A stretch of 64,000 bases of DNA from Spirochaetota bacterium (GTDB taxonomy: Bacteria > Spirochaetota > Spirochaetia > CADAEX01): the NCBI GenBank assembly GCA_009786125.1, contig WQTU01000139.1:8483-72482 (forward strand). The letters run 5' to 3'. Shown here piece by piece: positions 1-22,692 of this stretch (the stretch's first letter is position 1; every line of letters begins with the position of its first letter). The notes under the pieces were generated by a model, which was not told the origin of the DNA, did not search any database, and saw nothing but the letters and a program-made list of their open reading frames with translations. Made by a program: the position numbers and the translations under genes.

Positions 1-457
1 CCAGATTCCATTCCGGCATTTGTGCAACTTGCTCCAGATACATTCGGGCGATATCGATGCGTTGTTGCAAATAGAAGAATTTAGCAAATTGAGCGAGGCG
101 CAAAAGAAAAAGGTCTCAGTGCGGGCGCAGTGCGCGTGGAGGTGGATAACGAATTTTGCGCCGGAAGATTTTAGGTTTTCGCTTAAATCTGCGACAGATC
201 CGGTTATAACTGTTGACGAGAACTCAGCGAAAATATTAAGAGCTTTGGCGTTAGAAGTAAAAAAGCTTGAAACCCATACAGAAACTTCTCTTGCGGAAGC
301 TATTTATAAAATAGCTCAGGATAACGGCGCAGACCCAAAAGATATTTTTAAGTTGGTGTATACTGTTCTTATTGGAAGAGAAAAAGGGCCAAGACTTGCG
401 GGGTTTATAATGACAGCAGGTAAAAATAAGATACTTCCCTTGCTGGAAAGATATTAA
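1..457 (+). CDS. Class I lysyl-tRNA synthetase-like protein, C-terminal fragment; the gene continues upstream of the window
   Basis: The frame is open from position 2. The C-terminal motif KDIFKLVYTVLIGREKGPRLAGFI resembles the tail of class I (archaeal/spirochaete-type) LysRS. This is recalled similarity only, with no alignment available. Confidence 0.5.
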   Translation, partial: QIPFRHLCNLLQIHSGDIDALLQIEEFSKLSEAQKKKVSVRAQCAWRWITNFAPEDFRFSLKSATDPVITVDENSAKILRALALEVKKLETHTETSLAEAIYKIAQDNGADPKDIFKLVYTVLIGREKGPRLAGFIMTAGKNKILPLLERY

Positions 458-509: not shown

Positions 510-3500
510 TCATCTTGATAATTCGTCGGCAATTAATTCCGCCTGTTTCAATACTGTCTCGGTTGCAAGCATCTGCATATCAGGCGGATAACCATACTGC
601 CTTAAAATTCTTTTAACAATTACTTTTAATTTTGCCCTAACACTTTCTTTTATTGTCCAATCAATAGAAGCATTTTCTTTGACCTTTTCAAAAAGAACAA
701 CCGCAAGCTCACGAAGTTTGTCCTGTTCCATTAGCTGCTTTGCGCTGTCATTATTTGCAATAGCAGTATAAAATGCGTATTCATAATCCGAAAGCCCCAT
801 CTCTTTGGGCTCTTTATCCATTTCGTGGATTTCTTTTGCCAGTCCAATAAGTTCTTCGATAACTTCAACAGCAGAAATAATTTTGTTCTGATATTTTTTG
901 ATGGAGTTTTCAAGCATTTCCATTAAGGTTTTACTTTGTATCAAGTTCTTTCTAGTGCGTGATTTTATTTCATCGTTAAGTAGTTTCTTTAATACCTCAA
1001 GGGCAATATTTTTATGCTTCATATTTTTAACTTCAAGAAGGAAATCTTCGGAAAGTATGGAAATATCAGGTTTTTTGATTCCCGCAGCATCAAAAATATC
1101 TATTACTTTTTCTGTAACAAGCGCTTTATCAATTACTTGACGAATTGTTGTTTCGATTTCTTCATCTGTTTTTCCAGAACCAAAACAATTAAACTTAACA
1201 AGCCGCGATTTAACTGCCTGAAAAAACGCGATTTCATCTTTAACATCCATTGCCTGTTCATGAGGAGTTGCTATTGAAAAAGCTTGCGATAAAGCCGTTA
1301 CTTCATCAATAAAACGTTTTTTGCCATTTTCAAGACCAAGTATGTGTTCTTCTGCAGAAAGAATATAAGATAATTTTCTTCCGGTATCTGCTTCAAAGTA
1401 TTGTTCATAAGCAAAACCATGAAACATTTGAGAAACAATTTCCAGTTTCTCCAGCATAAGCTGCACTGCTTTTTCTTGATTAACTGCCGGATCGCCTTTG
1501 CCTCCGGCATCTGAATAAAAAGAAAGCGCTTTTTTTAAGTCCGAGGCTATCCCAAGATAATCAACAATCAAACCACCTGTTTTATCTTTATACACTCGGT
1601 TAACGCGGGCAATTGCCTGCATTAAGTTGTGCCCTTTCATTGGCTTGTCAAGGTAAAGAGTGTGGAGCGAAGGCACATCAAATCCGGTAAGCCACATATC
1701 GCGAACAATTACGAGTTTTAGTTCATCCTCGGGATTTTTCATCCTGTCTGCCAAAAGCCGGCGTTGGTCTTTTGTTGTATGGTGCCTGGATATTTCCGCT
1801 CCATCCGAAGACGCAGAAGTCATAATTGTTTTGATTACGCCTTTTTTCAAGTCATCATTATGCCATTCAGGTCTTAATTCTATAATTGCTTTATAAAGTT
1901 CAGCAGCTATTCGGCGGGACATAGCAACAATCATCCCTTTCCCGTCGATTACTTCTTGGCGTTGCTCGAAATGAGCAACGATGTCTTTCGCAACTTGTTT
2001 TATCCTGTCGGCACTGCCAATGAGAGCTTCAAGCTGTGTCCACTTGGCTTTTGCCTTTTGAGTCTCGGATAAATCGTCATATACAAGCTCATCATCAAGC
2101 TCTTTTACAAGCTTTTTTCCTTTGTCACTTAACCTGATTTTCGCAAGACGGCTTTCATAATAGATTCTGACTGTAGCGCCATCAATAACAGCCTGCGCAA
2201 TATCATATACATCAACATAATTGCCAAAAACCGCTGGTGTGTTGACATCGGTGTTTTCTATAGGTGTGCCTGTAAAGCCGAGATATGTTGCATTAGGGAG
2301 CGCATCACGCATATATTTTGCAAAACCATAGACGATTTTTTTACCTATTGCATTGCCGTTTTCGTCTTTGTCATCTATTGTTTTTGCCTTAAATCCATAT
2401 TGTGTTCTGTGAGCTTCATCTGCAATAACGATAATATTGGTTCTCTCCGAAAGTTTTTCGTAAACATTTCCTTCCTCGGGCTGAAACTTCTGAATTGTTG
2501 TAAAAACAATCCCGCCGGATGCAACTCTCAATAACTTTTTTAAATGTTCCCGATCTTCTGCCTGAACAGGTTCTTGCCTAAGCAATTGCCTGGAAGCAGC
2601 AAAAGTATCAAATAGCTGGTCATCAAGGTCATTGCGGTCGGTGATTACAAGAATAGTTGGATTGTCCATAGCAAGAACAATCTTTCCGGCATAAAACACC
2701 ATTGAAAGTGATTTCCCCGAACCTTGGGTATGCCAGACAACGCCGCCTTTTTTATCGCCAACAGGCTGAGATTTTACGCCCGACAAGCCATATTTTTCCG
2801 GCGATTCCCCGACCTCTTCTGCGCCAAAAGAATCTGCTGGCTTTTTAACATAACCAGATGCACGTAACGTTGATTCAACAGCTCTGTTTACAGCATAATA
2901 CTGATGATACGCTGCCAGTTTTTTTACAGTCTGAATTGTTATAATACCTGTTTCTTTATCTTCTTTTTTGGATTTTTCAAAAACAATAAAATGGCGAATT
3001 AAATCCAGTACTGTTTTTTTGTTTAACATTCCGCAAATTAGTGTTTCCAGTTGACCAATGAGCGCAGATGCTTCATTCTTACCATCAGAAGTTTTCCACG
3101 CCATAAAACGGCTGAATCCGGCAGAGATCGTACCTGCTTTTGCTTCAAGCCCATCTGAAATAATTAAAAACCCATTGTACGTAAAAAGAGAAGGGATTGC
3201 TTGTTTATATGTTTCCAATTGAAGAAATGCCGAACGCACAGTAGCATTTTCATCAATTGGGTTTTTAAGCTCCATTACAGTAAGAGGCAAACCATTGATG
3301 AATAAAATTACATCGGGCCGTTTGTTAACATGATTTTCTATAATTGTGTATTGATTTAAAACAACAAAATCATTATTTTCCGGCTCATCAAAATCCATGA
3401 GCCAAACCAAATCGCCTCGGCTGCTTCCGGCTTTTTGATAAGTAACGCTAATGCCCTCGGTTAACATCCTGTGGAAAACTTCGTTATTTGCAACCAAATC

Positions 3501-3740
3501 AATCGAGTTAAGACGCTGAATCTGTTTTATTGCATCTTCCTGCGCATCTGTTGGTATTGTTGGATTTATTCTAGAAACAGCGGCTTTTAATTTTTCAAGC
3601 AAGATAATTTCTTCAAAGGAAGAACGCTGCGCTGTTTCGCTGTCCGGAGCAATATCAGGACCATATATATACTCATAGCCCTGTTTTTCGAGAAGCCTTA
3701 TCGCGAATTCTTCAATACCGGATTCAGTGATTTTATTCAT
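510..3740 (-). CDS. hsdR: Type I restriction enzyme R subunit HsdR
   Basis: 1076 aa. Helicase motifs are present: VWHTQGSGKSLSMVF (Walker A/motif I) and IVIADEAHRTQ (DEAH). Length and C-terminal region are typical of HsdR. It lies in a locus with hsdM and hsdS. Confidence 0.9.
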   Translation of the reverse strand: MNKITESGIEEFAIRLLEKQGYEYIYGPDIAPDSETAQRSSFEEIILLEKLKAAVSRINPTIPTDAQEDAIKQIQRLNSIDLVANNEVFHRMLTEGISVTYQKAGSSRGDLVWLMDFDEPENNDFVVLNQYTIIENHVNKRPDVILFINGLPLTVMELKNPIDENATVRSAFLQLETYKQAIPSLFTYNGFLIISDGLEAKAGTISAGFSRFMAWKTSDGKNEASALIGQLETLICGMLNKKTVLDLIRHFIVFEKSKKEDKETGIITIQTVKKLAAYHQYYAVNRAVESTLRASGYVKKPADSFGAEEVGESPEKYGLSGVKSQPVGDKKGGVVWHTQGSGKSLSMVFYAGKIVLAMDNPTILVITDRNDLDDQLFDTFAASRQLLRQEPVQAEDREHLKKLLRVASGGIVFTTIQKFQPEEGNVYEKLSERTNIIVIADEAHRTQYGFKAKTIDDKDENGNAIGKKIVYGFAKYMRDALPNATYLGFTGTPIENTDVNTPAVFGNYVDVYDIAQAVIDGATVRIYYESRLAKIRLSDKGKKLVKELDDELVYDDLSETQKAKAKWTQLEALIGSADRIKQVAKDIVAHFEQRQEVIDGKGMIVAMSRRIAAELYKAIIELRPEWHNDDLKKGVIKTIMTSASSDGAEISRHHTTKDQRRLLADRMKNPEDELKLVIVRDMWLTGFDVPSLHTLYLDKPMKGHNLMQAIARVNRVYKDKTGGLIVDYLGIASDLKKALSFYSDAGGKGDPAVNQEKAVQLMLEKLEIVSQMFHGFAYEQYFEADTGRKLSYILSAEEHILGLENGKKRFIDEVTALSQAFSIATPHEQAMDVKDEIAFFQAVKSRLVKFNCFGSGKTDEEIETTIRQVIDKALVTEKVIDIFDAAGIKKPDISILSEDFLLEVKNMKHKNIALEVLKKLLNDEIKSRTRKNLIQSKTLMEMLENSIKKYQNKIISAVEVIEELIGLAKEIHEMDKEPKEMGLSDYEYAFYTAIANNDSAKQLMEQDKLRELAVVLFEKVKENASIDWTIKESVRAKLKVIVKRILRQYGYPPDMQMLATETVLKQAELIADELSR

Positions 3741-3746
3741 TAAAAA

Positions 3747-4028
3747 TTATACCAACTCGAAGCGCAATTTTTTTCCTAAAACATGAGCTGCTTTTTTTAA
3801 GGTTAAAAGAGTAATCGACTCATTTTCAGGATCAAGAAGCCGGTTTACTGCAGCACGAGAAGTATCAAGCCGCGCTGCTAAATCGGTCTTTGATAAATGC
3901 TCTTTTTTAATTGCCTCATGCAATTGATATGCAATAATTTTTTTTATAGCTCCGGCTTCTACTTCCTCGCTGATATTTTCTTTAGCCAGAAAGTCATCAA
4001 ATGAACTGCCGATAGTTTTATTTTTCAT
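3747..4028 (-). CDS. higA: HigA-like antitoxin (XRE-family HTH)
   Basis: The HTH segment LSKTDLAARLDTSRAAVNRLL is present. I placed the start at the internal Met (MKNKTIG), which is preceded by GGAGG and lies 2 nt after the toxin stop. The track's longer ORF would overlap the toxin. Confidence 0.7.
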   Translation of the reverse strand: MKNKTIGSSFDDFLAKENISEEVEAGAIKKIIAYQLHEAIKKEHLSKTDLAARLDTSRAAVNRLLDPENESITLLTLKKAAHVLGKKLRFELV

Positions 4029-4030
4029 CT

Positions 4031-4393
4031 TTATACTCCTCCTGAAAATACTAAATCCCGCCGTTTTTTCGCAAGATCTAAGTCTTGTTTTGGTGTTTTT
4101 TGACTCTTTTTTATGATGCTGTGCAATAAAATCATATATTTTTTCCAAAATGTAAAAAAAATCCGGCATATCCCATCACGTAAATCAACTCTGACTTCCC
4201 ATAAATCTTTATCCAGTTTAGTAACTCGCGGATATCCAATTGGCCATAAATACTCAACCGCTTTGATCTCTTCTCCTATGATCTTTTTTTCCTCTTGTGT
4301 CCGATGCTTGAGCCAATCCCTTACCGGCTCATTTCCTGCCGAAGTTTTAAAGAAATACACTGTTAATGCTTTTTCTGCGCTTTTATAAGGCAT
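4031..4393 (-). CDS. higB: HigB/Gp49-family (RelE/ParE superfamily) toxin
   Basis: Recalled similarity to phage Gp49-like/HigB toxins: ...WEVRVDLRDGICRIFFTFWKKYMILLHSIIKKSQKTPKQDLDLAKKR. The toxin lies upstream of the antitoxin, as in higBA. Confidence 0.7.
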   Translation of the reverse strand: MPYKSAEKALTVYFFKTSAGNEPVRDWLKHRTQEEKKIIGEEIKAVEYLWPIGYPRVTKLDKDLWEVRVDLRDGICRIFFTFWKKYMILLHSIIKKSQKTPKQDLDLAKKRRDLVFSGGV

Positions 4394-4545
4394 ATTTAAA
4401 GCGTATCAAAATTGATACAACATGTCAAGCGATTATTTATAATCCCATATAAAACCTTTCACTGCGGATTTATAAGTTCCTTATCTGACATGGAAAAATC
4501 TTCGGCGAATTTTACTGTTGCTTTTCCCTTTAAAGTACCCAGTTC

Positions 4546-4640
4546 TCTTTTTTTGATTTTTTCCAGCAAGATTATTTCTTCAAAAGAAGAATGCTACGGT
4601 GTTTCGCTGTCCGAAGCAATGTCGGGACTATATATGTACT
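4546..4640 (-). pseudogene. Degenerate duplicate of the hsdR 5-prime end (remnant fragment with an in-frame stop)
   Basis: About 85% nucleotide identity to 3589-3672, which encodes HsdR residues ~24-55 (..FEEIILLEKL..). The fragment lacks a start and contains a TAA in frame. Confidence 0.7.
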
Positions 4641-4702
4641 AGTTCGATGGCAAAGGTTTCTATGAGGGGTGGTGGTCATTGTTCAAATATTATGACATAA
4701 GT

Positions 4703-5830
4703 TCAAAATTTATGATATGAGGAATAATATGTAATTCCGTCTATTACTGATCTTTCGGTGTCTTCAACAACAAATCCAACACTATATTTTGCCCTTGTTA
4801 TAGCTACATAAAACTTGGAACGACTTGTGTCTTTCAACTCTGATTGTTTGTTTTTTAACCACTTAAGCATTGGGGCAGTTGGGTATATAAGAATTCTATC
4901 AAAAGAAAGCCCCTTTGATTCCCCAAAGTTCATTACACGATGATTTTCACTTACAGTAGTTCTTCTACTGTCGCGTAATTGCAACGGTTCGTATTGATGT
5001 AAATATTTTTCGACATCTTTCTTTTTTACAAAAAATATTCCATCGTGGTCGGTTGTTCTATTATTTCCCGAAGTTGTTTTCTGCATTGTAGGAAACAGTT
5101 TATTTGACAATTCACAGATTGGTTTTATACATCTGTAATTAACTATGAGCATGGTATCATCTTTTGTTAACTTTTTTTCCTTATCTGTAAAAAAGTTAAC
5201 AATTTTGGCTTTTTTGAATTGTTTGTTTTTTGGTGCGCTATTGGTAGAATAAGTTCCTTGCCGAGGATCACCAACTAACAAAACATTTGAATTGCAATCA
5301 AACAACAATTTTAATAACTCTAAATCGTAACCCGCTAAATCTTGTACTTCGTCAATAAAAACATGTGCATATATTCTTGAAATTCTATCAATAACACTTC
5401 CTTTTGTTTTTTCATTGCAGCGAAATACAAATTTTGAAAGTTTGTCAGAGTAGATTTTTAGTTGATTAGAGAAATAATGTTTTTCAAAATCTTTTTCTTC
5501 CCCAAAATAGATAGGTTGCCCATTTCTCACATAACCTTTTATGCCTGACTGGCTATTTACTAAAATAAGCCCTTTGATTTTCTTATCAAGCAAAATTCCC
5601 TGAAATGGTCTTGCACCATGTTTCAATAGAAATGAAAACCAAGTTTGAACAGTAATATTTTCAGGAATACATTTGTTTAATTCAATAATTTTCGTTTTAA
5701 TTTCAGCCTCATTTGCTTGCGTATAAGTTGTAATCAGCACTTTTTCGTCTTTTATATTTAGTGCTTCATTTACAATGAGACTGGTTTTACCTGAACCCGC
5801 TGCTGCGATTATGAGTTTGTTATTTTTCAT
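4703..5830 (-). CDS. gajB: UvrD-like helicase, Gabija GajB-like
   Basis: Walker A AAAGSGKTS, motif II VFIDEVQDLAGYDL and motif VI-like YVAITRAKYSV are present. It overlaps the upstream OLD-like gene by 11 nt. Confidence 0.6.
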   Translation of the reverse strand: MKNNKLIIAAAGSGKTSLIVNEALNIKDEKVLITTYTQANEAEIKTKIIELNKCIPENITVQTWFSFLLKHGARPFQGILLDKKIKGLILVNSQSGIKGYVRNGQPIYFGEEKDFEKHYFSNQLKIYSDKLSKFVFRCNEKTKGSVIDRISRIYAHVFIDEVQDLAGYDLELLKLLFDCNSNVLLVGDPRQGTYSTNSAPKNKQFKKAKIVNFFTDKEKKLTKDDTMLIVNYRCIKPICELSNKLFPTMQKTTSGNNRTTDHDGIFFVKKKDVEKYLHQYEPLQLRDSRRTTVSENHRVMNFGESKGLSFDRILIYPTAPMLKWLKNKQSELKDTSRSKFYVAITRAKYSVGFVVEDTERSVIDGITYYSSYHKF

Positions 5831-7445
5831 TGCACCAATTGATTACATTGTCAATATAGGCAGGATATCTTATTTGCTTGTCTGAATTGAATATTTTTAA
5901 AGCAGAATTTGTTTTATTGTCTTGCATATATTTGGAAATCTTATCTGCAGTACTGTATTTGCTGTTTTGAATTTCTAAAACCTCACATAAAACAGCAAGT
6001 TTTTTATTGTTTGCATCAACAATTTGAGGCTCTAATGTATCCAGACTGTTGCGATTATCGGCGAAAATTTTGACTACTACAGAATCTTTATATAAGTCAT
6101 ATTTTTTCGTGATTTTGTTTTCGTAATCACCATCATTATCTGTAACTACCGCAACTTGTTTTTGAATTTTTTCCGCAATTTCCAAAAACCGTAAAAATGA
6201 TGTTCTAACCGAAATAACATCAACTCCGTCTTCTATTGGTAATTTCCCATTTTTTACTTGATACGCCTTTTGTACAATCAATTCATCTGAATCACCCTCT
6301 ACCAAGATTGCCTTTTTACATAAAATCAAGCGCAATGTATCATAACCTGATAATTTTTTGAAAAAATTAAAAGTATCATATGGCAAGTCATTTAGCTTGA
6401 TAGTTTGCTTATCATTAAGTAAAATTAAATTCTCTAATCCTAATTTGTTGGAAACAAAACTATTATGAGTAGAGATTAGTATTTGTTTATCGCTGTGGTC
6501 TTGGGTAATATCTTCTATCAATTGGTTAAGTTTTGTATGCGACAAATGGTTTTCGGGCTCTTCAAGCAAAATGATATTTGCTTCTTTTGCTTTTTTATGT
6601 CTTAATGCTAATTTCGTTTTGATTATACACTGCTCACCTTTACCAATATTCTGAAACGGAATTTCTTCTATACAAGTAATTAAACTATTTTCCCAAGCAT
6701 TTTTTGAAGATAGTTCAACCGATAATTCTACTTTTTTATCAGAGATTTTTGATGCATTTTTAATTTTTTCATTGATTGCTTGAATTGCCTCATGCTCAAC
6801 AAAAGTGTCTCTCATTTGTCGGTGGGCTTGTGAAACTTTTACAATTTCTTCTGATTCTAAAAAATCTTTCACTATGCGAGAAATGTAAATATCAGAACCA
6901 TTTTGTAGTTTATTGCTTGCAGAGTCAATCAAGGCAGACTTTATAGGGATTGTCCTAGTGGTAATATTTTCATCTCTCGCGAAACTTGACAATAAAACAT
7001 TATAGTATTCAATTGGAAGAGTTTTTATCCCGCCGATTTTTACTAACTCTTCATACTCCTTCTGATATTTTTCATCAAAAGCGATTTTCAATGAGATACC
7101 TGAAGATTTGGTCTTTTGACTATTGCCGTCTCCTTCAAACTCTGCTAAGTCTTCACCGTCCATATAAATTTCGATTAAAATATGTGGTAAAGATTTATTT
7201 TCTTTATCAGGTTCTAAACTCTGTATGTATTCTGCAACTACCTCATTATTAAATATATATTGAGTAAGTTCATTTTTTAGATATTTTGCGTTGTACAATC
7301 CTGTCAAAGCAAGGTGTATAGCTTCAATAATTGTAGATTTCCCTGATTCATTATTGCCAACAAGAATATTAACACCTTTATTCAAAACCAAATCAAAACT
7401 TTTGAAAATCTTGAAATTTTCAATATGTATTTTGTTAATATTCAT
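5820..7445 (-). CDS. gajA: OLD-family ATP-dependent endonuclease (ABC-type ATPase N-term + Toprim C-term), Gabija GajA-like
   Basis: N-terminus VGNNESGKSTIIEAIHLALTG is P-loop. C-terminus AILVEGDSDELIV ... VVTDNDGD is Toprim (E/DxD). The ATGA overlap with the hsdS stop gives translational coupling. Confidence 0.7.
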   Translation of the reverse strand: MNINKIHIENFKIFKSFDLVLNKGVNILVGNNESGKSTIIEAIHLALTGLYNAKYLKNELTQYIFNNEVVAEYIQSLEPDKENKSLPHILIEIYMDGEDLAEFEGDGNSQKTKSSGISLKIAFDEKYQKEYEELVKIGGIKTLPIEYYNVLLSSFARDENITTRTIPIKSALIDSASNKLQNGSDIYISRIVKDFLESEEIVKVSQAHRQMRDTFVEHEAIQAINEKIKNASKISDKKVELSVELSSKNAWENSLITCIEEIPFQNIGKGEQCIIKTKLALRHKKAKEANIILLEEPENHLSHTKLNQLIEDITQDHSDKQILISTHNSFVSNKLGLENLILLNDKQTIKLNDLPYDTFNFFKKLSGYDTLRLILCKKAILVEGDSDELIVQKAYQVKNGKLPIEDGVDVISVRTSFLRFLEIAEKIQKQVAVVTDNDGDYENKITKKYDLYKDSVVVKIFADNRNSLDTLEPQIVDANNKKLAVLCEVLEIQNSKYSTADKISKYMQDNKTNSALKIFNSDKQIRYPAYIDNVINWCNEK

Positions 7446-8542
7446 GCTCCCACCCTCACTTCCCCACTCATAAGCTTAGGCAAGAGAGTATCGCGGAGTT
7501 TTTCGAGAGTGTGGATTTGTATATTATTGTGTTCTATTTTTTCAAAAATTGAATCTGTAATATTTTCAAATTTTTTCAAATACTCCTCTGGTGGCTTTAT
7601 CAAAGGTAAGTTGTTTAATACTTCAGTTGTCATGCTTGGCACAGCCGAGCCAACATTCATGGAAACTAAATCCAGGTTTTTTACAAAAAAATAAATAAAT
7701 TTGGCAATGTGTGGCTGTTTCATTATTGTATAAAACATGGTATCAACAGTCCAAAACGGTTTGTTTATATAAAAGACATTTCCAAGTGTTCCTTTTCTCG
7801 GTATCAAAACTGATTCTTTATTGTAAAGAGCAGTTTCAGCAAAACGCATAATCCCACCCGATCCATAAACAGGGATGTTGCCATCAAAAAGATGTTTGTG
7901 GTCTTTACCATATTTTATATCAACAAAATAACTGAGAGAAACTTCTCCCCAAACATCCTGCGCTTCTTCTACAAACCACTGGCGGAACAGGGTTTCTGCC
8001 ATGGCTTCAAGTGTTTTGTTCTGGCGATGCAAAAGGTCTATTTTGTCGTCTAAGTTGGAAAGCACCTCGGCAATGGCGCGTTGTTCGGGGAGAGGGGGAA
8101 GGAGGAAAGTATGATTTTTAACAACATCCATTTCCACGCGTTGACGACCAGAACTACCCGTCATTGCAAGAATAGCTACATCACGAAATTCCGGAGAAAT
8201 GGAAAAATAGTATAAATAATGTTTATCGCTTAAATCTGCTTTTTCTCTTAAAACTATATATTCTGTTGAGCCAAAACCTATTTCTCCTGAATCTAAAACA
8301 TCAACATAAGCGGTCTTACCATTTTCCAAGCAAGGAGTTATTCTAGCTATAATAGTATCACCATTTCTGAATTTCGTGCCCCCATTAAAAGGTTCAATAG
8401 AAAATCCAGAAACCTTTTTTGTAAACGGCTTTAAGCATTCCATAGCAATCTTTTTAGCTGCCAGACCTTTCGCTATGGACTCAGCTGGATTTATTAATGC
8501 AATATCCTCTAGTTTATATTCCTGCCACTCACTCATCACCAC
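7442..8542 (-). CDS. hsdS: Type I restriction-modification specificity subunit HsdS
   Basis: Conserved HsdS central/C-terminal helix LPPLPEQRAIAEVLSNLDDKIDLLHRQNKTLEAMAETLFRQWF is present. It sits between hsdM and hsdR. Confidence 0.85.
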   Translation of the reverse strand: MVMSEWQEYKLEDIALINPAESIAKGLAAKKIAMECLKPFTKKVSGFSIEPFNGGTKFRNGDTIIARITPCLENGKTAYVDVLDSGEIGFGSTEYIVLREKADLSDKHYLYYFSISPEFRDVAILAMTGSSGRQRVEMDVVKNHTFLLPPLPEQRAIAEVLSNLDDKIDLLHRQNKTLEAMAETLFRQWFVEEAQDVWGEVSLSYFVDIKYGKDHKHLFDGNIPVYGSGGIMRFAETALYNKESVLIPRKGTLGNVFYINKPFWTVDTMFYTIMKQPHIAKFIYFFVKNLDLVSMNVGSAVPSMTTEVLNNLPLIKPPEEYLKKFENITDSIFEKIEHNNIQIHTLEKLRDTLLPKLMSGEVRVGA

Positions 8543-8714
8543 CGCCTCCTCCGGCTTTCAGCTTTTTTTGCATTTCGCGCAAAGCATCTAAATATGCTTT
8601 TTCTACATCAGTTAAATCATCCAAAAAAGCAATTTGCATATTTTGCACATTGCTTTTTCCGCCAAGTTTAATTGCGTCAACATTGCTGACACAATTTGGT
8701 ATCTGATTACTCAT
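8529..8714 (-). CDS. Small hypothetical protein (61 aa, Gly-rich C-terminus)
   Basis: ORF only. It is tightly packed between RhuM and hsdS (3-nt gap upstream, 14-nt overlap downstream). Confidence 0.25.
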   Translation of the reverse strand: MSNQIPNCVSNVDAIKLGGKSNVQNMQIAFLDDLTDVEKAYLDALREMQKKLKAGGGGGDE

Positions 8715-8717
8715 TTG

Positions 8718-9788
8718 TTAGCCCCCATCTCCGGCTTTTCCTTGTTTTTTCTTCCTCTTCTGCGTCTCTTCTGTCTTGGTCTCAAGTTCAATAAATCTAT
8801 CAAAATCACTTTTGAATAGTTTGTCCTGTACAATGCGATATTTTTCAAATTCGGTTTCTGCATGTTTTTGGGCAATTTCTGCGGAGACCTTTCCGGCATC
8901 ACTTAAAATTTCACGGTCTGTTGCCGCAATGAAGCGGTTAAGCCGGGTTTCCCAATCACTCATAGTCATGGGAATACGCCGAATAGCCATATCTTCTGCA
9001 ATATCCAGATAGGCGTTAACAAGTCGTTCAAGTTGCTTCATTTCAAATTCAGTTAAGTAATTTTTAGCAACAACAACATCGTATTTTTGGATTTTTCCTT
9101 TTGGAGCGTCATTCCAAGAAGTTAAACCCATGTGCTGTTTTTCGGAATTGGCGCGTTCGATAATTAATTCCGCGGCTGTATGACCATGAATAGCCCAGTG
9201 AAGTTTATTTTGCACAGTAGCAAAAAAACGTTTGGTCGCAGCGGCAGTTACATCATAATCAACGGAAGTAGCATAAATATCAGTAATTTTCTGATAGAAT
9301 TTTCGTTCGCTTAGGCGTATTTCTCGGATACGTGCCAGTTGTTCTTCAAAATACTTGTTTGTTAATATGCTGCCGGATTTCAGACGTTCATCGTCCATGA
9401 CGTAGGCTTTAATCGTAAATTCTTCAATTATGTTTGTTGCCCATTTGCGAAATTGAACAGCTCGTTCAGAGTTTACTTTGTAGCCGACAGCAATTATGGC
9501 TTTTAAGTTGTAATGCTTTGTATCATAAGTTTTGCCATCTGAAGCAGTTATCCGGAAATTCCGGATAACTGCTTTTTCGTCCAATTCACTATCAGCAAAT
9601 ATTTTTTTTAAGTGTTCGTTAATAGTACGAACATTTACATCATAAAGCACAGCCATCATCTTTTGCGACAGCCATACGTTTTCGTCAGCATATATTGCCT
9701 CAACTCCATCTTTGCCGCTTGCAGCAATAAAAGTTAAATATTCTGCAGCAGAACTGCGGATAGTGATTTCTTTTTTTGGGGATTTCAT
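8718..9788 (-). CDS. RhuM-family (virulence protein RhuM) DNA-binding protein
   Basis: The sequence IRNFRITASDGKTYDTKHYNLKAIIAVGYKVNSERAVQFRKWATNII matches the RhuM family, which is commonly embedded in type I R-M loci. Confidence 0.75.
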   Translation of the reverse strand: MKSPKKEITIRSSAAEYLTFIAASGKDGVEAIYADENVWLSQKMMAVLYDVNVRTINEHLKKIFADSELDEKAVIRNFRITASDGKTYDTKHYNLKAIIAVGYKVNSERAVQFRKWATNIIEEFTIKAYVMDDERLKSGSILTNKYFEEQLARIREIRLSERKFYQKITDIYATSVDYDVTAAATKRFFATVQNKLHWAIHGHTAAELIIERANSEKQHMGLTSWNDAPKGKIQKYDVVVAKNYLTEFEMKQLERLVNAYLDIAEDMAIRRIPMTMSDWETRLNRFIAATDREILSDAGKVSAEIAQKHAETEFEKYRIVQDKLFKSDFDRFIELETKTEETQKRKKKQGKAGDGG

Positions 9789-9816
9789 AGATTCACCTTT
9801 AATTTATTCCACTCAC

Positions 9817-10530
9817 TCATTGACTTTTCCCCCTCATAGAATATCTCACAATCCATTTGCCGGTTTTATCAGCACCAACACGCTCTATAACCCCTGATTT
9901 TTTCAGTTGAGCAACATTGTATTCCACTCTACGTTTAGTTATTTGAATGGTACCTGCAATTTTTTCAGCAGTAATTTCAGGGTTTTCAATCATTAAGGCA
10001 ACAATTTTCGCTTTTAATTCATCCAATCTATAATTTACACCACCATTTACACCACCATCTAATGCTTCTTCCCTTTTATTGTTATTTCTGATATGAAAGC
10101 AAATTGAAAACATAGTTGCCAAAATATCAAATTCGGGCTCAGGAAGGTTATCGGCAATGCAGCCGCTTTTCATTTTTTCAATACCTCTTCCCCAAGCTTC
10201 AATTTGCCCGGAACGAAAATAATATTTTCCTCTAAAGCTGATGGCATTCGGGTGCAGGCTTATCTTTATGACAATATAATCTAAGCTTTTTTCTGTGTAC
10301 AAATTGACATCAGCTAAAATCCCCATTGTTGAGCGAATTTTATTAGGAAGCTCTTCCAACAATTTTGATGCATTTGATATTCCGACAACTACACCACGAT
10401 TGTTTTTGCCAATTTCAAGAACACCTCCCTGTGCATTAGCAAAACCGCAAATCCACTTCAGGTATTCGTCGCGCCAAGTCTCTTTCCATTCAACAATCTG
10501 ATTTTCTCGGCTTTTAACTTTTTTATTCAT
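9817..10530 (-). CDS. AlbA_2 (Schlafen-like) domain protein with C-terminal winged-HTH
   Basis: N-terminal [27 protein letters not shown] is AlbA_2-like. A C-terminal HTH is present. There is a 4-nt overlap with hsdM. Confidence 0.65.
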
Positions 10531-12068
10531 ATTTTCACCCGTTTTAGGTTTTGCAAAATAGCTTTGTTAAGCCTTTCTTCTTCTTTTAATTGCGCCTCAA
10601 ATTCTGCCTTTAAGCTACTGAACCGTTCCTTAAAATCAAAGTCATCTTCTTCATCCGGAAGCCCAACATATCTGCCCGGTGTTAATACATAATCAAGTTC
10701 TTTGACACGCTCTATATTTGCAGAAAAACAAAACCCTTTTACATCTTCGTATTTTCCTTTAAACTTTCGCCATTCGTGATAAGTTGAAGCGATTTTTTTA
10801 ATATCATCTTGCGACAGCTCTTTTGTTCTGCGGTTAATCAAATGTCCTTCATTGCGTGCATCAATAAACAGAATCTCGTTAGTCCTGTTTCGACTACCTC
10901 CGTTAGCTTTATTGCGGGATAAAAACCACAAACAAGCAGGTATTTGGGTATTCAAAAAAAGCTTGCCGGGAAGATTAACAATACAGTCAACAAGCCGCGC
11001 TTCGATCAAAGCTTTGCGAATATCGCCCTCGCCCGAAGTTTTGGAAGTGAGCGAACCTTTTGCCAGAACAAATCCGGCAGTGCCGCTTGGGCTTAAATGA
11101 TAAAGAAAGTGCTGGATCCACGCATAGTTTGCATTCCCGACAGGGGGAACACCATACTTCCATCTGCCGTCTTTGCGAAGCAGATCCCCGGACCAGTCAC
11201 TGTCATTAAACGGCGGATTGGCAATAACAAAATCTGCCTTTAAATCTTTGTGCGCGTCATTCAAGAAAGAGCCTTCGTTATTCCACTTGACCTGCGAGCT
11301 GTCAATGCCGCGAATAGCAAGATTCATTTTTGCCAGGCGCCATGTTGTCTGATTACTTTCCTGACCAATAATGGATATATCGCTTATTTTACCTTTATGC
11401 TCTGCCACAAATTTTTCTGATTGCACAAACATACCGCCGGACCCGCAGCAAGGATCAAATACGCGGCCTTTGTATGGCTCAAGTATTTCTACCAGAAGTT
11501 CAACAACACTTCGGGGAGTATAGAACTGGCCGCCTTTTTTTCCTTCTGCAAGAGCGAATTCACCTAAAAAATATTCAAACACATGACCAAGCACATCTGC
11601 ACTTCGTGCTTTCGCGTTTCCAAGAGCAATATTTCCAATCAGGTCAATTAATCCGCCAAGGTTTGTGGGATCCAAATTGCCGCGCGCAAATACTTTTGGC
11701 AATACATCTTTCAGCGATGGATTATCTTTTTCGATTGCATCCATTGCATTATCTACATCTTTGCCTATGGTTGGCAATTTTGCCTTAGATTGCAGATATG
11801 TCCAGCGGGCAACTTCGGGAACAAAGAAAACATTTTCTGCTTTGTATTCATCTTTGTCTTCGGGGTCTGAGCCAGCGTATTCGCCTTTTTCGCTTTTTAG
11901 TTTTGCATAAAGTTCTTCGAAAGCATCTGAGATGTATTTTAAAAAAATCAGCCCGAGAACAACATGTTTGTATTCAGCAGCGTCGATATTTTTTCTTAGT
12001 TTGTCGGCAGATTTCCAGAGCTGCTTTTCGATTGGTTCGTTACTGATGTTTTCTTTAGTCTTTGCCAT
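10527..12068 (-). CDS. hsdM: Type I restriction-modification DNA methyltransferase subunit HsdM
   Basis: AdoMet motif [12 protein letters not shown] and catalytic motif IV NPPFN are present. The N-terminal HsdM_N-like region is present. Confidence 0.9.
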
Positions 12069-12104: not shown

Positions 12105-12250
12105 AAGTTTGCTCGCGACTCTCACTTATTCGGCGGATGTGCAAGCTCTGCAACATGGACGTCACTGCCTAGCAGTGGATCTGGCGCAGCGACACGGATG
12201 TCGCGATAAAGCGCCAGGCAGCTTGTCCGCGGTTCTTGCTCCGTCAGCGA
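12105..12250. repeat. GC-rich interspersed repeat, A-type module; inverted copy at ~53320-53440
   Basis: cgcgactctcacttattcggcggatgtgcaagctctgcaacatggacgt...ctggcgcagcgacacggatgtcgcgataaagcgccaggcagcttg is near-identical to the reverse complement of 53320-53440. The CTCACTTATTCGGCGGATG sub-module also occurs at 55673-55693 and, inverted, at 50140-50160. Confidence 0.8.
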
Positions 12251-13209
12251 ATGAGCCTGCTTAAAATACCTCTTTTCTTCCGCCAGTTGGAGTTAACTTT
12301 TACCCGTAAATCTATTATAACCGGATACGGAAAAATCGATTTTATTTCCCGTTTTGCAGCTTTTTTGATTGCGCGGATTTTCTCCCCGCCGCTGCCAATA
12401 ATTATTTTCTTTTGCGACTCACTCTCTGCAATCAAAAACGCCCGCACCCAAAGCTCCTCGCCGTGCTGACCCTGGTTCATTTCAATATCCGCGATTTCAA
12501 CATAAACACTGTGGGGGATTTCTTCTTTTGTTCTGTTTACTGCTTTTTCTCTTATTATCTCACTTATTCGAAAAGCAACATCCTGATCCGTATAAACATC
12601 ATCAGGATATAATTTCTCGCCTTCGGGCGCTTTCTCAAACATAACATCAAGAAGTTTATCCACGCCCTCGCCAGTCATTGCCGAAACATGGCAGATGGAA
12701 ATATCTTTAGCCGGCTCTTTTTTGCGAAGATTTTTTTTCAAAAAGTTCCCAAGGCTTTCGAGAAACTCCGGTATGTTTTTCTCCGCTACCGTAATAAGAT
12801 CAATTTTATTTAAAGCAACGATTACAACCGCGTTCAGCGCCGCAAGATATTCGAGTATTTTTTTCTCTTCTTCGCCGGGCTCCCGCGTGCAGTCAGTAAC
12901 GTAAAGAATTATTTCTGCATCATTAACAACAGTCTCGGTTACCTGCTTTAATTCGTTATTTATTTTTTTTTCTGAAATATGATATCCGGGAGTATCCTGA
13001 AAAATCAGCTGCCCCCGTTCTTCAGTTAAGATGCCGCGAATTACATTTCTTGTTGTCTGCGGAGTTGCAGACACAATGGAAACCTTATATCCGCATATCT
13101 TGTTCACGAGAGTCGATTTTCCGGAAGATGGCCTTCCTATAAGTGTAATAAAAGCTGATTTCACTATAAAATATCCTTTTTTGGCGACTAAACTGAAAAC
13201 AATCATCAA
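12244..13209 (-). CDS. era: GTPase Era
   Basis: G1 GRPSSGKSTL and G3 DTPG are present, with a C-terminal KH domain. The true start is probably GTG at 13164 (AAAGGA 9 nt upstream), which gives the canonical Era N-terminus. Confidence 0.9.
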   Translation of the reverse strand: MMIVFSLVAKKGYFIVKSAFITLIGRPSSGKSTLVNKICGYKVSIVSATPQTTRNVIRGILTEERGQLIFQDTPGYHISEKKINNELKQVTETVVNDAEIILYVTDCTREPGEEEKKILEYLAALNAVVIVALNKIDLITVAEKNIPEFLESLGNFLKKNLRKKEPAKDISICHVSAMTGEGVDKLLDVMFEKAPEGEKLYPDDVYTDQDVAFRISEIIREKAVNRTKEEIPHSVYVEIADIEMNQGQHGEELWVRAFLIAESESQKKIIIGSGGEKIRAIKKAAKREIKSIFPYPVIIDLRVKVNSNWRKKRGILSRLIR

Positions 13210-15069: not shown

Positions 15070-15930
15070 CTAATACCTATAATATAGAACTCCAAATTGC
15101 TGTAATCGACCAATTCTGTCATGCGTGTTGGGGTGAGTTGAATACAGAGCTTTCAAAAATGATTCTTGTGGCTCACTTGTTCCGATGGCATCCAAACCTT
15201 TTGCTAATTCAAATCCATAACCTAACTCAGCGGCATATTTGTCGGCATCATATTCATTTTCCCGCGATGACCACATTAAAAACAGCATACAAAATTTTGT
15301 CCAAAGCCATATAATAGCAGCGAAAAACAATCCTATAATAACAGTACCAAAAGAACGACGTCTAATCCCGGAAATAAGAGAAAAAGCACCTATTATTGTG
15401 TATATTAGTTTTATGATTAGAAGTAATGTAGTTAGAATAAAATTGCCACCCCCGATTAAAAGCTGAATCTCATTATGACGATACGCTAAATGTGCTACTT
15501 CATGTGCTAAAATTCCTTGAATAACATCATCAGGTAGCTGAAAAAGCCCCTCGGTTACACAAATTGTCCTTCGCCCGATTGCGTAAGCGTTTGGTTCGGG
15601 GGAATAAATTACTTTCAAAACTATTTTATTTGTAAGCTTTGGTGTTTTTCTTTTTGCTTTATTGTATACAATTTCCAGCAATGGAATCATTCGAATTCTC
15701 ATGTCAACTCTTGTCATTTTTCTGGCTCCAGCCATTAAGCAGAGAATCCATTCGCCGATTGAAGAAAAAGCAATAAATATTGACAGGATATAAATAATGA
15801 CTATGACATACAGAGAATGAAAACCAATACTAGCGAAAAGTCCAATTATGATTAGCGCATTTAGGATAAAAAAAATAATTGTCCCAATACTTGATTTTTT
15901 AAATATATTTTTTGCTATATCCATACTCAT
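15070..15930 (-). CDS. M48-family (HtpX-like) membrane zinc metalloprotease
   Basis: HEVAH (HExxH) plus a downstream EYDADKYAAELG motif, with N-terminal and internal TM helices. It is the last gene of the operon, 16 nt after the FtsK-like gene. Confidence 0.75.
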   Translation of the reverse strand: MSMDIAKNIFKKSSIGTIIFFILNALIIIGLFASIGFHSLYVIVIIYILSIFIAFSSIGEWILCLMAGARKMTRVDMRIRMIPLLEIVYNKAKRKTPKLTNKIVLKVIYSPEPNAYAIGRRTICVTEGLFQLPDDVIQGILAHEVAHLAYRHNEIQLLIGGGNFILTTLLLIIKLIYTIIGAFSLISGIRRRSFGTVIIGLFFAAIIWLWTKFCMLFLMWSSRENEYDADKYAAELGYGFELAKGLDAIGTSEPQESFLKALYSTHPNTHDRIGRLQQFGVLYYRY

Positions 15931-15945
15931 TGTTACTGCCCTTTT

Positions 15946-18900
15946 CTAATCATGAATGGACAGACTTTTAATATATTTTTTTAATTCAGAATTATCGGGC
16001 ATGATATAAGGTTTATATTGGAAGATGTTTTTTACTCCATCAGAGTAATATACTGTATTATCTTTTAAACCAGCAACAGCAACGCCGTCAATGAGATTGT
16101 CAGCATCGCTGTTGCTCAAAGCAAAAATGATTCTTGCAGGAAATTTGGATAAAATGTTTTCACCATAATACATATTTTCCTTGACGCTTTGATATTCAAG
16201 CGAAGAAGTAATAAAATAAATTCCATAATTGGACCCATCGTCAATAAGCTGCAACAGTTTTTCTGAGATGGACAGGGATGGAGAGCCTGCATTTCCTGAT
16301 ACACCGAAATCAGCAAATTCATTTACGGACTTAGTGGCAATATTATCAATATATTCACTTTCATCTACGGACTCACCTTTAAACATTTTTTTTATAAGAT
16401 CAAGAAATTGCAGGTTCTTTATTACAACCAAAGATTGTTTATTATCCCCGCCCTTTTTTCTCTCTGAGTAAATTGTAAATAAATCGTTGATAATTTGAAT
16501 TATTTCTGTTCTGTTTTTTGCAGTCCTGAAACGTAAACTAAAACCGGTTAAACAATCATAAAATGCAGCCGAGATGCTTTCGCCTATTAAACTCTCTCCA
16601 TCTATACAGTAAACATTAGTATTTGTGTTCAGTAATGCTGAAAACATACAAAGGTTAGTAAGATTTTCAGCCATTTTTTCGTTTGCTCCACAAATTAATA
16701 AATTATGCCTTCTGCGCCGATCAAACTGCATAATAAATGGTGGTGCAACCTTTATGAGTGTCCCCATGTATATTTTTATAACGTTATCAGATGAAGAACC
16801 TGTTTTGCTTTGATTCAAATATTCAACAAGTGAAACCGTTCTGTTTCCTTCAAATATTTGCATCGTAGCTGGATAATCTGCATACTTTTCAGAAATAAGA
16901 GACAAATATTTTATTTGTGCTTTTTTTGAGCAATATGCGGCACGGAATCCTATATTATTTGATTCCATGTATTCCAAATTCATTACGGCTGTACCGATAG
17001 GGCCTTTCATCATTTCAATGATTTTATCATCGTTTCGATTTCCGAATAAATACCGTATATCATCCTCACCGCATTTTAAACCAATACGGATACGCATTTG
17101 TTCAATAATGCCATGCGATAGTGTCAGTTCACTTATAATTTTTGTAGTCTGCGTTGCCATCAAAAGATGAATGCCAAAGGCCCGACCTTCGGTGACGATC
17201 CGCTTAGTCAGTTCAGAGCAATTTCTGGCTACTTTGCGATTTGCAGAATCATTAAAAAGAATTTGAAACTCGTCCATGACAACTAAAATACGTGGCAGAG
17301 GATTTCCTGTGCCTTTTATATAATCAAAAAGGCTTGATTGTCCAGAATTTTTAAACAAGTCTCCACGGCGCAGCATTTCGCTGACTAGATTTTCCAATAT
17401 ACTCTCGCCAAATTCCTGCATGGCATCAAGCGCTAATAATTGAATATGCGGCAAATTGAAAGATTCATAAATCTTAAACTCTGTTCCGCTTTTAAAATCC
17501 ATCAAATACAAATGTAACTCATCTGGGCTATGGGATAACATACCACTCATAATTATTGTGTGCAGTAAAGTTGATTTGCCGGAGCCCGTAGCACCGGCGA
17601 TTATCCCATGATGTGATGAACCTTCTCCCAATATCAAGTCTACAGGGTTTTCGCCGTCGCCAATGCCCACGGTAATAGATAGTCTTTTTGCTGTTGAAGA
17701 AGAAAAAAGCGATGGACTTATAATGTCTTCAAGGGATAGACCTTTTTGTTTTAGGTTGGTAATAGCTTCTATGTATTGATTTATAAAATCGGAAATCCTG
17801 TTCTTTGATAGCTCAGGTGCTACATCAACTTGTAATCCAAAAGGTTGAAGAATATATTTTTTTTCAACATATTCCAACAAAGAACAGTGTTTTTTTATCT
17901 CTTCAAGATGTTCATCGATACTCTCATACTTTGAAAATAAGATATTTGGATTATGGCATATAACTGCGTAAATTCCGCATTTGCTGCCATTATTAAGAAT
18001 ATTTATTAACAACTCTATACTTCGGTTGTCAAAATTGCGGGGAAAATCAAATATAATCAACATAATAATAGGTTCGATACGATTAGGCGTGTTACTGTTG
18101 TATTCAATAATATTGGCAAAGCGATTGCCGAGCTTCTCCTGGATAAACTCGTCAATATATCTGTTTAATTTTTGCAGCGTACCTATCATAGCGTCTTGTG
18201 TGGTATAAATTTGTCCGTCAAAAATATCAGGAAGATTTTGGCGAAAATCCAAAAAAGGCGTTATGCTGTTACCCCGGCGTTCAGCATCAAATACGCAAAA
18301 TTTTATTTTTGAAACCGGAACAGAAGATAGAAAGCTCCACATTAAACCGTGTATAAATTTTATTACATGCTGCTGGACTGCTTCCGGGCAAATAATTAAT
18401 AGACTACTTTTTTCTTTAAGGTTAAAAATTGCCGGCAAAATAAAAGTTTGTGAATTTTGTGTTGTCAATTCAGTTTTTATTCTTGCAATCGTATTGTTAT
18501 CTGCTACTAAATCCAAAGGACAGGATAAATACCCTACTGAGATTTCCGCGGGGAAACTGTCTGTAACTGACGGAACTACACCAAAAGTATTGTTATACCT
18601 GTCAAGAGTATTTTTTATTGCACTTATTGCAAATTGAACTTTATCGGCATTTTCACTGTCTATCAGTTCACAGACTATAGAACCTAATAAAGCAATATTG
18701 CCGTGAAAACTACTGTAAGTGAATAAATAATTTTTGATATATCTTGATAAATCATTTCCTGCAAGGGCTTCATTATATGTTACCCGAAGATTGTAGTAGA
18801 GGAACATATCAACCGCTTGTTGGATGATAATACTGTTTTTTACATGGTAAGGCGGCAAGGCATTTCCTGACTGTACTCTATATACAATTACGGTATAAAC

Positions 18901-20226: not shown

Positions 20227-20254
20227 ATAACGCTCTCCTTAGCCATTTATGATT

Positions 20255-21379: not shown

Positions 21380-21381
21380 TC

Positions 21382-22368: not shown

Positions 22369-22431
22369 ATAAGATATGCAAGTCTAATAACAATCAAACC
22401 TGCATAACTATCCTCCGCATGTAAATTCAGA

Positions 22432-22674
22432 TCAAATAAATCGATCTCGATTCGCTAAACAAAAATTGACAAATGCATCTTTTTTAACAACAAGCTTCAC
22501 TGGAAATGGTAGCCCCTGGTAAACTAAAGAGAATATTGCTTCCACTGCTTTGTCATTTTCAGCTGCCGCTAAAGCAGCAGGCCCTACTTTCTCCTGAAAA
22601 ATCTTTTGTATCTGAGGCCAATGCTCCTCAATAGTTTTCTCGATCTGCTTATTCAGCACATTTCCTAAATCCAT
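22432..22674 (-). CDS. Hypothetical small protein (80 aa) between E2-like and JAB genes
   Basis: ORF with tight packing. Mostly helical with a C-terminal beta-like segment. No C-terminal Gly. Confidence 0.35.
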   Translation of the reverse strand: MDLGNVLNKQIEKTIEEHWPQIQKIFQEKVGPAALAAAENDKAVEAIFSLVYQGLPFPVKLVVKKDAFVNFCLANRDRFI

Positions 22675-22692
22675 ACACCCTCCTCTATAGTC

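Follow-up and report, generated by a model that had tools for sequence, protein, structure and literature searches.

We analyzed a 64,000-nt window of the genome of a Spirochaetota bacterium (GenBank assembly GCA_009786125.1, contig WQTU01000139.1), in which the genes of a type I restriction–modification (R-M) operon are interspersed with genes for further predicted defense and toxin–antitoxin (TA) functions. All coordinates are positions in this window, and the island occupies 510–12068 on the minus strand. Listing of the open reading frames (ORFs) together with Pfam and PADLOC profile searches resolved a single co-oriented block with the order hsdM, a gene combining AlbA_2 and winged helix-turn-helix (wHTH) domains, RhuM, a 61-aa ORF, hsdS, gajA-like, gajB-like, an hsdR 5′ fragment, an antitoxin-like tail, higB, higA, and hsdR (Table 1).

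An earlier note made from the sequence had named a set of these genes and described them as co-oriented; every gene that it named is in place on the minus strand and is strongly matched by profiles, and the whole block shares one orientation. The 61-aa ORF (8529–8714) and the hsdR 5′ copy with its antitoxin-like remnant were absent from its list. It had put the inserted cargo between hsdS and hsdR, which is right for the OLD nuclease/UvrD helicase pair and HigBA but wrong for RhuM and the AlbA_2 gene, both of which lie between hsdM and hsdS. Its estimate of ~3.7 kb for the separation of hsdS and hsdR agrees with the 3,701 nt that we counted from the hsdS stop to the hsdR start, and the gajA start codon does lie inside the hsdS stop as an ATGA overlap (7445–7442), as the note had read it. 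A second ATGA overlap joins hsdM to the AlbA_2 gene.

The presence of HsdM, HsdS, and a full-length HsdR identifies a predicted type I R-M system. HsdS covers positions 1–398 of 403 in the PADLOC Specificity_I model and is predicted to contain two target-recognition domains, Methylase_S having matched twice. HsdR scored 589 bits against TIGR00348 hsdR (cutoff 285), and its 1076 residues match the length of the protein in most relatives (about 1060–1125 aa); its ATG lies 6 nt past the higA stop. Exact sequence matches were found under accessions MCL2295340 (hsdR), MCL2295343 (gajB), and MCL2295349 (hsdM), and the identical locus is also present in a Logan assembly contig (L001).

Table 1. Predicted features of the R-M island and of a second cluster in the window
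Feature	Coordinates	Strand	Evidence
hsdM, type I R-M methyltransferase, 513 aa	10527..12068	-	Pfam N6_Mtase E 8e-111; HsdM_N E 1.6e-27; PADLOC MTase_I 662 bits
AlbA_2 (Schlafen-like) + wHTH protein, 237 aa, start overlaps hsdM stop	9817..10530	-	SLFN_AlbA_2 E 6e-9; HTH_24 E 1.6e-5; partial HATPase_c_4
RhuM-family protein, 356 aa	8718..9788	-	Pfam Virulence_RhuM (PF13310) E 1.9e-108, positions 1-249 of 252; PADLOC PDC-S05 E 3e-151
61-aa ORF between RhuM and hsdS, stop overlaps hsdS start region	8529..8714	-	ORF list; called as gene in L001
hsdS specificity subunit, 366 aa from GTG / 364 aa from ATG at 8536	7442..8542	-	Methylase_S, two stretches; PADLOC Specificity_I E 5e-85
gajA-like class 2 OLD nuclease, ABC ATPase + Toprim, 541 aa	5820..7445	-	PADLOC GajA PDLC00102, 710 bits, positions 1-531 of 532; OLD-like_TOPRIM, AAA_15
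gajB-like minimal superfamily 1 (SF1)/UvrD-type helicase, 375 aa	4703..5830	-	PADLOC GajB PDLC00148, 480 bits, positions 2-359 of 369; UvrD-helicase, Viral_helicase1, UvrD_C
Pseudogenized hsdR 5′ copy (about codons 9-52), frameshift + in-frame stop	4552..4680	-	Direct repeat D2 + translation/alignment
Remnant resembling antitoxin C-terminal tail ('..LGTLKGKATVKFAEDFSMSDKELINPQ' then stop), in-frame fusion to hsdR remnant	4459..4551	-	Translation
higB-like toxin, Gp49/RelE family, 120 aa	4031..4393	-	Pfam Gp49 E 2e-17
higA-like Xre-HTH antitoxin, 93 aa from ATG at 4028	3747..4028	-	HTH_3, HTH_37, HTH_26, E about 1e-4; 93-aa gene in L001
hsdR restriction subunit, 1076 aa, intact	510..3740	-	HSDR_N, SWI2_SNF2 (ResIII), T1R_D3-like, T1RH-like_C
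Terminator-like hairpin downstream of hsdR, possible operon end, weak	434..450	-	Consensus scan; site number not above shuffles
E2-like gene	22693-23208	-	Second cluster
Prok-JAB	21382-22368	-	Second cluster
ThiF/E1	20255-21379	-	PADLOC E1-E2 models
FtsK/HerA-like ATPase, 1426 aa	15946-20226	-	PADLOC SspH/mad8/HerA P-loop matches
M48 peptidase	15070-15930	-	Second cluster

Cargo slots and junction scars in related operons

A metagenome scan with HsdR yielded 80 loci of 75–87% amino acid identity, which we annotated by ORF calling and iterated-profile labels. Their layout is near-universal: hsdM, zero to two genes, hsdS, zero to six ORFs, and hsdR. The second of these slots, between hsdS and hsdR, holds 0.5–6.2 kb of cargo in 51 of the 55 relatives in which both genes were present (93%) and is empty in the other four, with junctions of –4 to +13 nt. 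The first slot, between hsdM and hsdS, is occupied in 27 and empty in 12 of the 39 loci with both of its flanking genes. Clustering at 30% identity divided the 97 ORFs of slot 2 into 58 families; the cargo of slot 1 formed 18.

Relatives' cargo with Pfam matches carries largely defense, abortive infection (Abi), or TA-type domains. Among 80 nonredundant slot-2 proteins, the most frequent were Abi_C (eight), RhuM (six), and DUF4917 and SMC_N-type ATPases (three each); PrrC/RloC-like AAA_13, DEAD helicases, Mrr_cat, DUF4325, TIR_2, reverse transcriptase, and AlbA_2 were found twice each, and REase-ARP, AbiTii, PDDEXK_3, Pycsar-type TIR, HEPN_Apea, Shedu SduA_C, and SEFIR once each. Slot 1 of the relatives includes YhcG/DUF1016 nucleases, HEPN/MNT pairs, ORF6N/KilA-N, Abi_2, and AAA_21 with HNH. 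An aggregated PADLOC scan of the relatives' cargo was dominated by redundant PDC-S05 models, and little was gained from it. The noncore genes of the window, lying between hsd genes and variable among homologous systems, are thus predicted embedded defense cargo. The proposal of the earlier note that the R-M locus is a hotspot where defense modules accrete is supported by the occupancy and variety of both slots, and the uninterrupted hsdS–hsdR junction that it suggested looking for exists in the four empty relatives, which supports accretion over ancestry. We considered and rejected a classical integrative element because the window contains no tRNA gene and none of the island ORFs scanned has a transposase or integrase match in Pfam.

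DNA homology between the window and its relatives falls into four stretches: hsdM (about 12068–10567), two parts of hsdS (its conserved middle and its last ~80 nt), and hsdR from the start codon onward. This homology ends exactly at the hsdS stop and restarts with the first codon of hsdR. The conserved 3′ end of hsdS ('..GAAGTGAGGGT..AGCATGA') is common to the relatives. At the AGCATGA junction, an empty relative (L087) reads '...GAAGTGAGGGTTATAGCATGA' and continues into hsdR; the window reads '...GAAGTGAGGGTGGGAGCATGA' and continues into gajA. The predicted ATG of gajA is thus located precisely at the hsdR start position of the cargo-free relatives, and the gene therefore inherits the GAGG (Shine–Dalgarno-like) motif and the ATGA overlap that are encoded by the conserved hsdS 3′ end.

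For each of 75 loci, we asked whether the 5′ end of its hsdR or the 3′ end of its hsdS is present in additional copies. The hsdR 5′ end recurs, as a copy of 63–103 nt and 87–95% identity, just upstream of the last cargo module in six loci (the window, L123, L128, L136, L141, and L152), and the hsdS 3′ end, as a copy of 58–73 nt and 83–90% identity, after the first cargo gene in four (L091, L092, L099, and L100). Three loci have gajA and gajB following hsdS (the window, L141, and L020), and in all three the hsdR 5′ remnant comes directly after gajB. What follows the remnant differs, being HigBA in the window and, in the other two, a RhuM fragment or an hsdS 3′ copy with RhuM. Among the three, GajA is 62–70% and hsdM 72–81% identical. 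The pattern of scars suggests duplicative insertion in which the conserved operon junctions would have acted as homology handles.

In the window, the scar lies in the 309-nt spacer between gajB and higB, which is not empty. A direct repeat of 89 nt (D2; 4552–4640 versus 3585–3673, 85% identity) corresponds to hsdR codons about 23–52, and the homology reaches about codon 9 in translation; this pseudogenized hsdR fragment is a scar of recombination. Within the window the copies are 85% identical to each other, and none of the 78 relatives compared has an hsdR 5′ end that is more than 76% identical to either; the duplication therefore arose in this lineage. Comparison with the relatives was also tried as a way of telling the resident from the incoming copy, and with the copies nearest each other it gave no direction. 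The stretch fused in frame to the hsdR remnant may be the tail of an antitoxin, a weak label based on its resemblance to antitoxin C-termini.

HigB and HigA follow, the toxin gene coming first and its stop lying 2 nt before the start codon of higA. A RelE/Gp49-fold toxin upstream of an Xre-HTH gene makes this a predicted type II TA module. A tblastn search of 160 fetched loci found no homologue of the antitoxin-like remnant, HigB, or HigA, and one HigB-like ORF was identified in L073 by iterated profile. The consensus scan, itself at background level, placed no terminator-like site between gajB and higB.

The cargo of slot 1 consists of three genes. In the same operons of the relatives, AlbA_2 proteins are longer, at 484–632 aa. 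The 237-aa protein of the window looks like an internally shortened form of this AlbA_2/HATPase_c_4/HTH protein, with only a fragment of HATPase_c_4. RhuM, which recurs as cargo among the hsdR relatives, has a full-length RhuM domain in a defense context and is a candidate defense gene of the PDC-S05 type. The 61-aa ORF had neither a Pfam match nor a tblastn homologue in the 160 fetched loci; its C-terminus is a Gly-rich acidic tail.

A compact Gabija-like pair and its distribution

The two genes following hsdS overlap by 11 nt and encode proteins with intact catalytic motifs. GajA has Walker A GNNESGKS (residues 30–37), IILLEEP at 291, Toprim VEGDS at 382, and DND at 436, and the Walker A motif, E383, and D436-x-D438 are invariant in the family alignment. 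GajB has the SF1 motifs GSGKT at 12, DEVQD at 160, GDPRQ at 187, and VAITRA at 342; only ~70 residues separate its motifs IV and V, which therefore leaves no room for a 2B domain. The G+C content of gajAB is 0.30–0.32 (gajA 0.30; third codon positions of the module 0.25) versus 0.38 for the window. An ABC ATPase with an OLD-type Toprim domain and catalytic acidic residues, immediately followed by a UvrD-like SF1 helicase, is the architecture of Gabija, and the pair is predicted to belong to that type. The check on its classification that the earlier note had called for came out in favor of a Gabija-like pair: the genes are adjacent, both match the PADLOC GajA and GajB models over their full length, and GajA structures head the list of fold matches. 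As the architecture of class 2 OLD nuclease plus UvrD-type helicase and the PADLOC models both fit, the filing of the pair as Gabija-like holds, for a divergent, compact clade with a mechanism that may not be simply transferable from Bacillus cereus.

The structural comparison used AlphaFold models built from shallow alignments (12 and 14 sequences), which reached a predicted local distance difference test score (pLDDT) of 53 in both cases and were confident only in the Toprim domain of GajA. Foldseek with the GajA model returned the Gabija GajA structures 8x5i, 8u7i, and 8sm3 on top (E 1e-10 to 7e-9), with class 1 Ts OLD and the C-terminal regions of the Bp and Xcc class 2 OLD proteins close behind. 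The GajB model matched generic SF1 helicases, with B. cereus GajB at rank 35 (E 3e-3), behind HelD, UvrD, and Dna2, a ranking that is not trustworthy because the model is poor.

These results bear on whether the pair could be a distinct class 2 OLD system with a mechanism of its own, merely absorbed by the broad PADLOC models, which we regard as rather unlikely. Class 2 OLD nucleases are reportedly a subject of work by Schiltz et al. from 2019. In favor of a distinct system, neither phmmer nor the family profiles retrieved B. cereus GajA or GajB from the Protein Data Bank (PDB), where their structures are present; the PDB matches were P-loop or generic only (PtuA, the retron Ec83 ATPase, Rad50, and Ts OLD for GajA; UvrD, Rep, PcrA, and AddA for GajB). 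The helicase is also shorter than its B. cereus counterpart (375 aa versus 493 for 8sm3_B), with no space for the 2B domain, and B. cereus GajB ranks low in the fold search, whereas in that with the GajA model the score of class 1 Ts OLD comes close to that of GajA. The architecture nevertheless fits Gabija, an ABC ATPase–Toprim OLD protein followed by an overlapping UvrD-family helicase and kept with it as a pair; the PADLOC matches are full length for both genes, GajA structures lead the Foldseek list, and the low confidence of the helicase model leaves its ranking with little weight.

A genome scan with the GajA alignment found 80 loci of 52–84% identity, spanning Bacteroidota, Paenibacillus and clostridia among the Firmicutes, Campylobacterota, Proteobacteria, the Candidate Phyla Radiation, Planctomycetes, and the archaea Methanosarcina and Methanogenium. 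A GajB homologue of ~370 aa directly follows GajA in 78 of the 80, and GajAB is, on this comparative evidence, a conserved and widely transferred two-gene mobile module. The closest homologues of the module in the window (84–88%) include metagenome-assembled genomes (MAGs) of Dysgonomonadaceae and Prevotellaceae.

Individual members of the clade show features of their own. In some proteins of the short GajB clade (P0162, P0225, and P0237), motifs Ia and II are separated by an additional ~20 residues that include four cysteines, a zinc-ribbon-like CxxC...CxxC (columns ~104–125 of alignment A2) that is absent from the protein of the window. In Arachidicoccus rhizosphaerae (L012, 10001–19156), two additional ORFs (524 and 250 aa) that may represent an insertion element lie between GajA and GajB, and an hsdR 74% identical to that of the window is convergent to gajB. 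The nested locus L020 (136–9140), on a contig labelled Candidatus Methanophagaceae archaeon, reads hsdM, hsdS, GajA, GajB, an hsdR 5′ remnant of 58 codons, an hsdS 3′ copy, and RhuM, and its hsdM is 81% identical to the window hsdM at the amino acid level. The presence of this locus in a contig binned with anaerobic methanotrophic archaea reflects either inter-domain transfer or mis-binning.

The EcoprrI system carries the anticodon nuclease PrrC between hsdS and hsdR, functionally dependent on the R-M complex, and Campylobacter jejuni has restriction-linked ORFs ('rlo'). The Gabija-like pair could form a functionally integrated composite with the R-M enzyme, coupled to it physically or through regulation as PrrC is to EcoprrI and silent until an anti-restriction protein (Ocr or Stp) disables the complex. 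We think such an integration unlikely. It would account for gajA abutting hsdS translationally in the window, L141, and L020, which are divergent loci, and for the ~12 of the 80 GajAB loci in which the pair directly adjoins a type I R-M operon in the same orientation, the gene order of these operons being of several kinds. Against it, ~65 of the 80 loci have no adjoining type I R-M in their 10-kb flanks, so the pair cannot depend on HsdMS/R, and the dozens of unrelated cargos accepted by slot 2 of the relatives are a better fit to a permissive site. Beyond the ~12 attached loci, ~7 adjoin large methyltransferases, and no R-M-type gene at all was found within 10 kb of the remaining roughly 60 by tblastn and iterated-profile labels, which distant families could escape. 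We rejected a specificity of GajAB for type I R-M on the same count of ~12 adjoining loci, which is also too few for an obligate R-M-dependent effector of the PrrC kind.

An R-M operon as a probable host for defense modules

We think it likely that the locus represents a chromosomal type I R-M operon, still intact, whose two internal junctions act as cargo slots for defense and TA modules, gajAB having been acquired horizontally and cargo being exchanged via conserved ends. In this explanation, hsdM, hsdS, and hsdR would still constitute an intact operon and both of its internal junctions would serve as slots, the first holding the AlbA_2–wHTH gene, RhuM, and the 61-aa ORF, and the second the acquired compact Gabija-type module followed by HigBA. 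Cargo would be exchanged by recombination, for which the conserved ends of hsdS (3′) and hsdR (5′) would supply the homology, leaving behind duplicated, decaying end copies such as the hsdR pseudo-fragment at 4552–4680. Judging from the overlaps, hsdM through gajB may be cotranslated as a unit and higBA–hsdR may form a second. By analogy with published work on other systems, the R-M complex would restrict unmethylated DNA, and the GajAB-like pair, RhuM, and the TA module would complement it or form a second line of protection, as in the case of a phage that inhibits the R-M enzyme.

Several points weigh against this explanation. The consensus scan for sigma-70 promoters gave fewer sites than shuffled sequences and the terminator scan was at background level, and operon structure is settled by neither; only the overlaps suggest translational coupling of hsdS and gajA and their cotranscription. 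The exact mechanism of insertion, and with it the recombination proposed to lie behind the scars, is conjectural. The turnover of cargo is seen across a gene family, the relatives being taxonomically unplaced metagenome contigs, and is not demonstrated strain-level polymorphism. Finally, the B. cereus proteins escaped the PDB searches described above, and mechanistic transfer from Gabija is uncertain because both structure models are poor.

Selfish accretion alone, in which addictive or mobile elements hitchhike on the operon with no cooperative benefit and the 3.7-kb insertion may partly decouple or silence hsdR, seems to us distinctly improbable. The HigBA addiction module directly before hsdR would suit it, as would the dead remnants of hsdR and an antitoxin, which look like the traces of sloppy, repeated insertion, and the differing genomic contexts of the R-M locus among the relatives, none of which has era upstream. 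On the other hand, the hsd genes and the cargo genes of the window are without exception intact, with conserved catalytic motifs, the Pfam-matched cargo of the relatives is largely of defense, Abi, or TA type, and hsdR genes that bear cargo are mostly full length. An ancestral origin of the nested gene order in this R-M family, as the prevalence of slot-2 cargo in the hsdR clade and the recurrence of hsdS–gajA–gajB–hsdR′ in L141 and L020 might suggest, is largely refuted, because relatives show empty junctions and dozens of cargos that differ between almost all of them; moreover, GajA is less conserved than hsdM among the three loci, and gajAB is compositionally foreign and spread over many phyla without R-M.

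The explanation by cargo slots in an intact operon also allows a bolder extension, which we offer as a speculation and do not expect to hold. The R-M operons of this clade may be an integron-like platform, with the hsdS 3′ end, including its ribosome-binding site and ATGA, and the hsdR 5′ end serving as portable handles for the duplicative capture and stacking of defense cassettes. If true, such a platform would explain the decaying end copies that flank cargo in ~10 of the 75 loci, as well as the hsdR 5′ remnant after gajB in three loci with GajA of only 62–70% identity. As a corollary, hsdR, starting so close behind higA, may be under the control of a TA promoter.

The island is flanked by housekeeping genes, with the Era GTPase gene (12244–13209) and clpP beyond it on one side and the 3′ part of an anticodon-binding-domain gene (20–457) on the other. 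At 3 kb from the R-M island, the window contains a second putative defense-type cluster (15070–23208, minus strand; Table 1). Its genes resemble a ubiquitin-like conjugation operon and include no CD-NTase.

Comparison with known systems

The position of the cargo between hsdS and hsdR and its ABC-ATPase-type effector are shared with EcoprrI–PrrC and the rlo loci, and PrrC-like AAA_13 proteins occupy slot 2 in two of the hsdR relatives. PrrC differs in being dependent on R-M; GajAB is mostly found without it, and therefore no PrrC-style dependence is implied.

Embedding as such is well documented. A RefSeq-wide census by Payne, Hughes, Fineran & Jackson (2024, bioRxiv 10.1101/2024.01.29.577857) deals with defense genes located within type I R-M, BREX, DISARM, and Hma loci. 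It describes such embedded genes as frequent in type I R-M, BREX, and DISARM and PrrC as a protein found almost exclusively inside type I R-M operons. It further proposes that an embedded ABC-ATPase system, for instance Gabija, serves as a backup of its host, since Ocr or another anti-restriction protein may block the host system and at the same time set off the PARIS or Gabija within it. The island resembles these embedded systems, as portrayed there, in having co-oriented non-hsd genes between the type I R-M core genes and in mixing known systems, PDC candidates (RhuM being PDC-S05), and genes of unknown function. It differs in being one locus of a Spirochaetota MAG with two filled slots and four modules, and the junction anatomy, that is, the reuse of ATGA and the hsdR 5′ and hsdS 3′ scars, does not appear in the consulted portions of the census.

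Two experimentally verified cases provide parallels. A type I R-M system on Vibrio pathogenicity island 2 (VPI-2) of V. cholerae embeds the two-gene defense system TgvAB (PMC11411939), and one of enteropathogenic Escherichia coli (EPEC) embeds DarTG2 regulated by RptR (PMC12255303); both give complementary protection. Like them, the island nests a two-gene defense or TA system in a type I R-M operon, but the cargo is different, GmrSD-like and DarTG in those loci and OLD/helicase, RhuM, and HigBA here. In comparison with the EPEC locus, the only HTH proteins here are the AlbA_2–wHTH protein and HigA, in a search that did not look in depth for an RptR-type regulator. With the Gabija system of B. 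cereus VD045, the pair shares overlapping genes for a nuclease of ABC ATPase and Toprim domains and, downstream, a UvrD-family helicase. At the sequence level, however, no similarity of the pair to the B. cereus proteins was detectable, and its helicase, at 375 aa, is too short for a 2B domain.

The embedding phenomenon and its rationale are thus already published, and current concepts are unchanged by this locus. Since cargo in slot 2 is the rule, the hsdR clade is a rich and easily mined source of candidate defense genes, and the 375-aa helicase partner, in a clade that spans bacteria and archaea, might be used as a minimal model of how Gabija-type systems work. Relative to the known systems, the locus is a clean natural example of stacked defense, a single type I R-M operon with four modules distributed over two slots, and what it adds is modestly new: the two-slot anatomy with 93% occupancy of slot 2, the reuse of an hsdS-encoded ribosome-binding site and ATGA, the hsdR 5′ and hsdS 3′ scars, and a compact Gabija-like clade with a 375-aa helicase.

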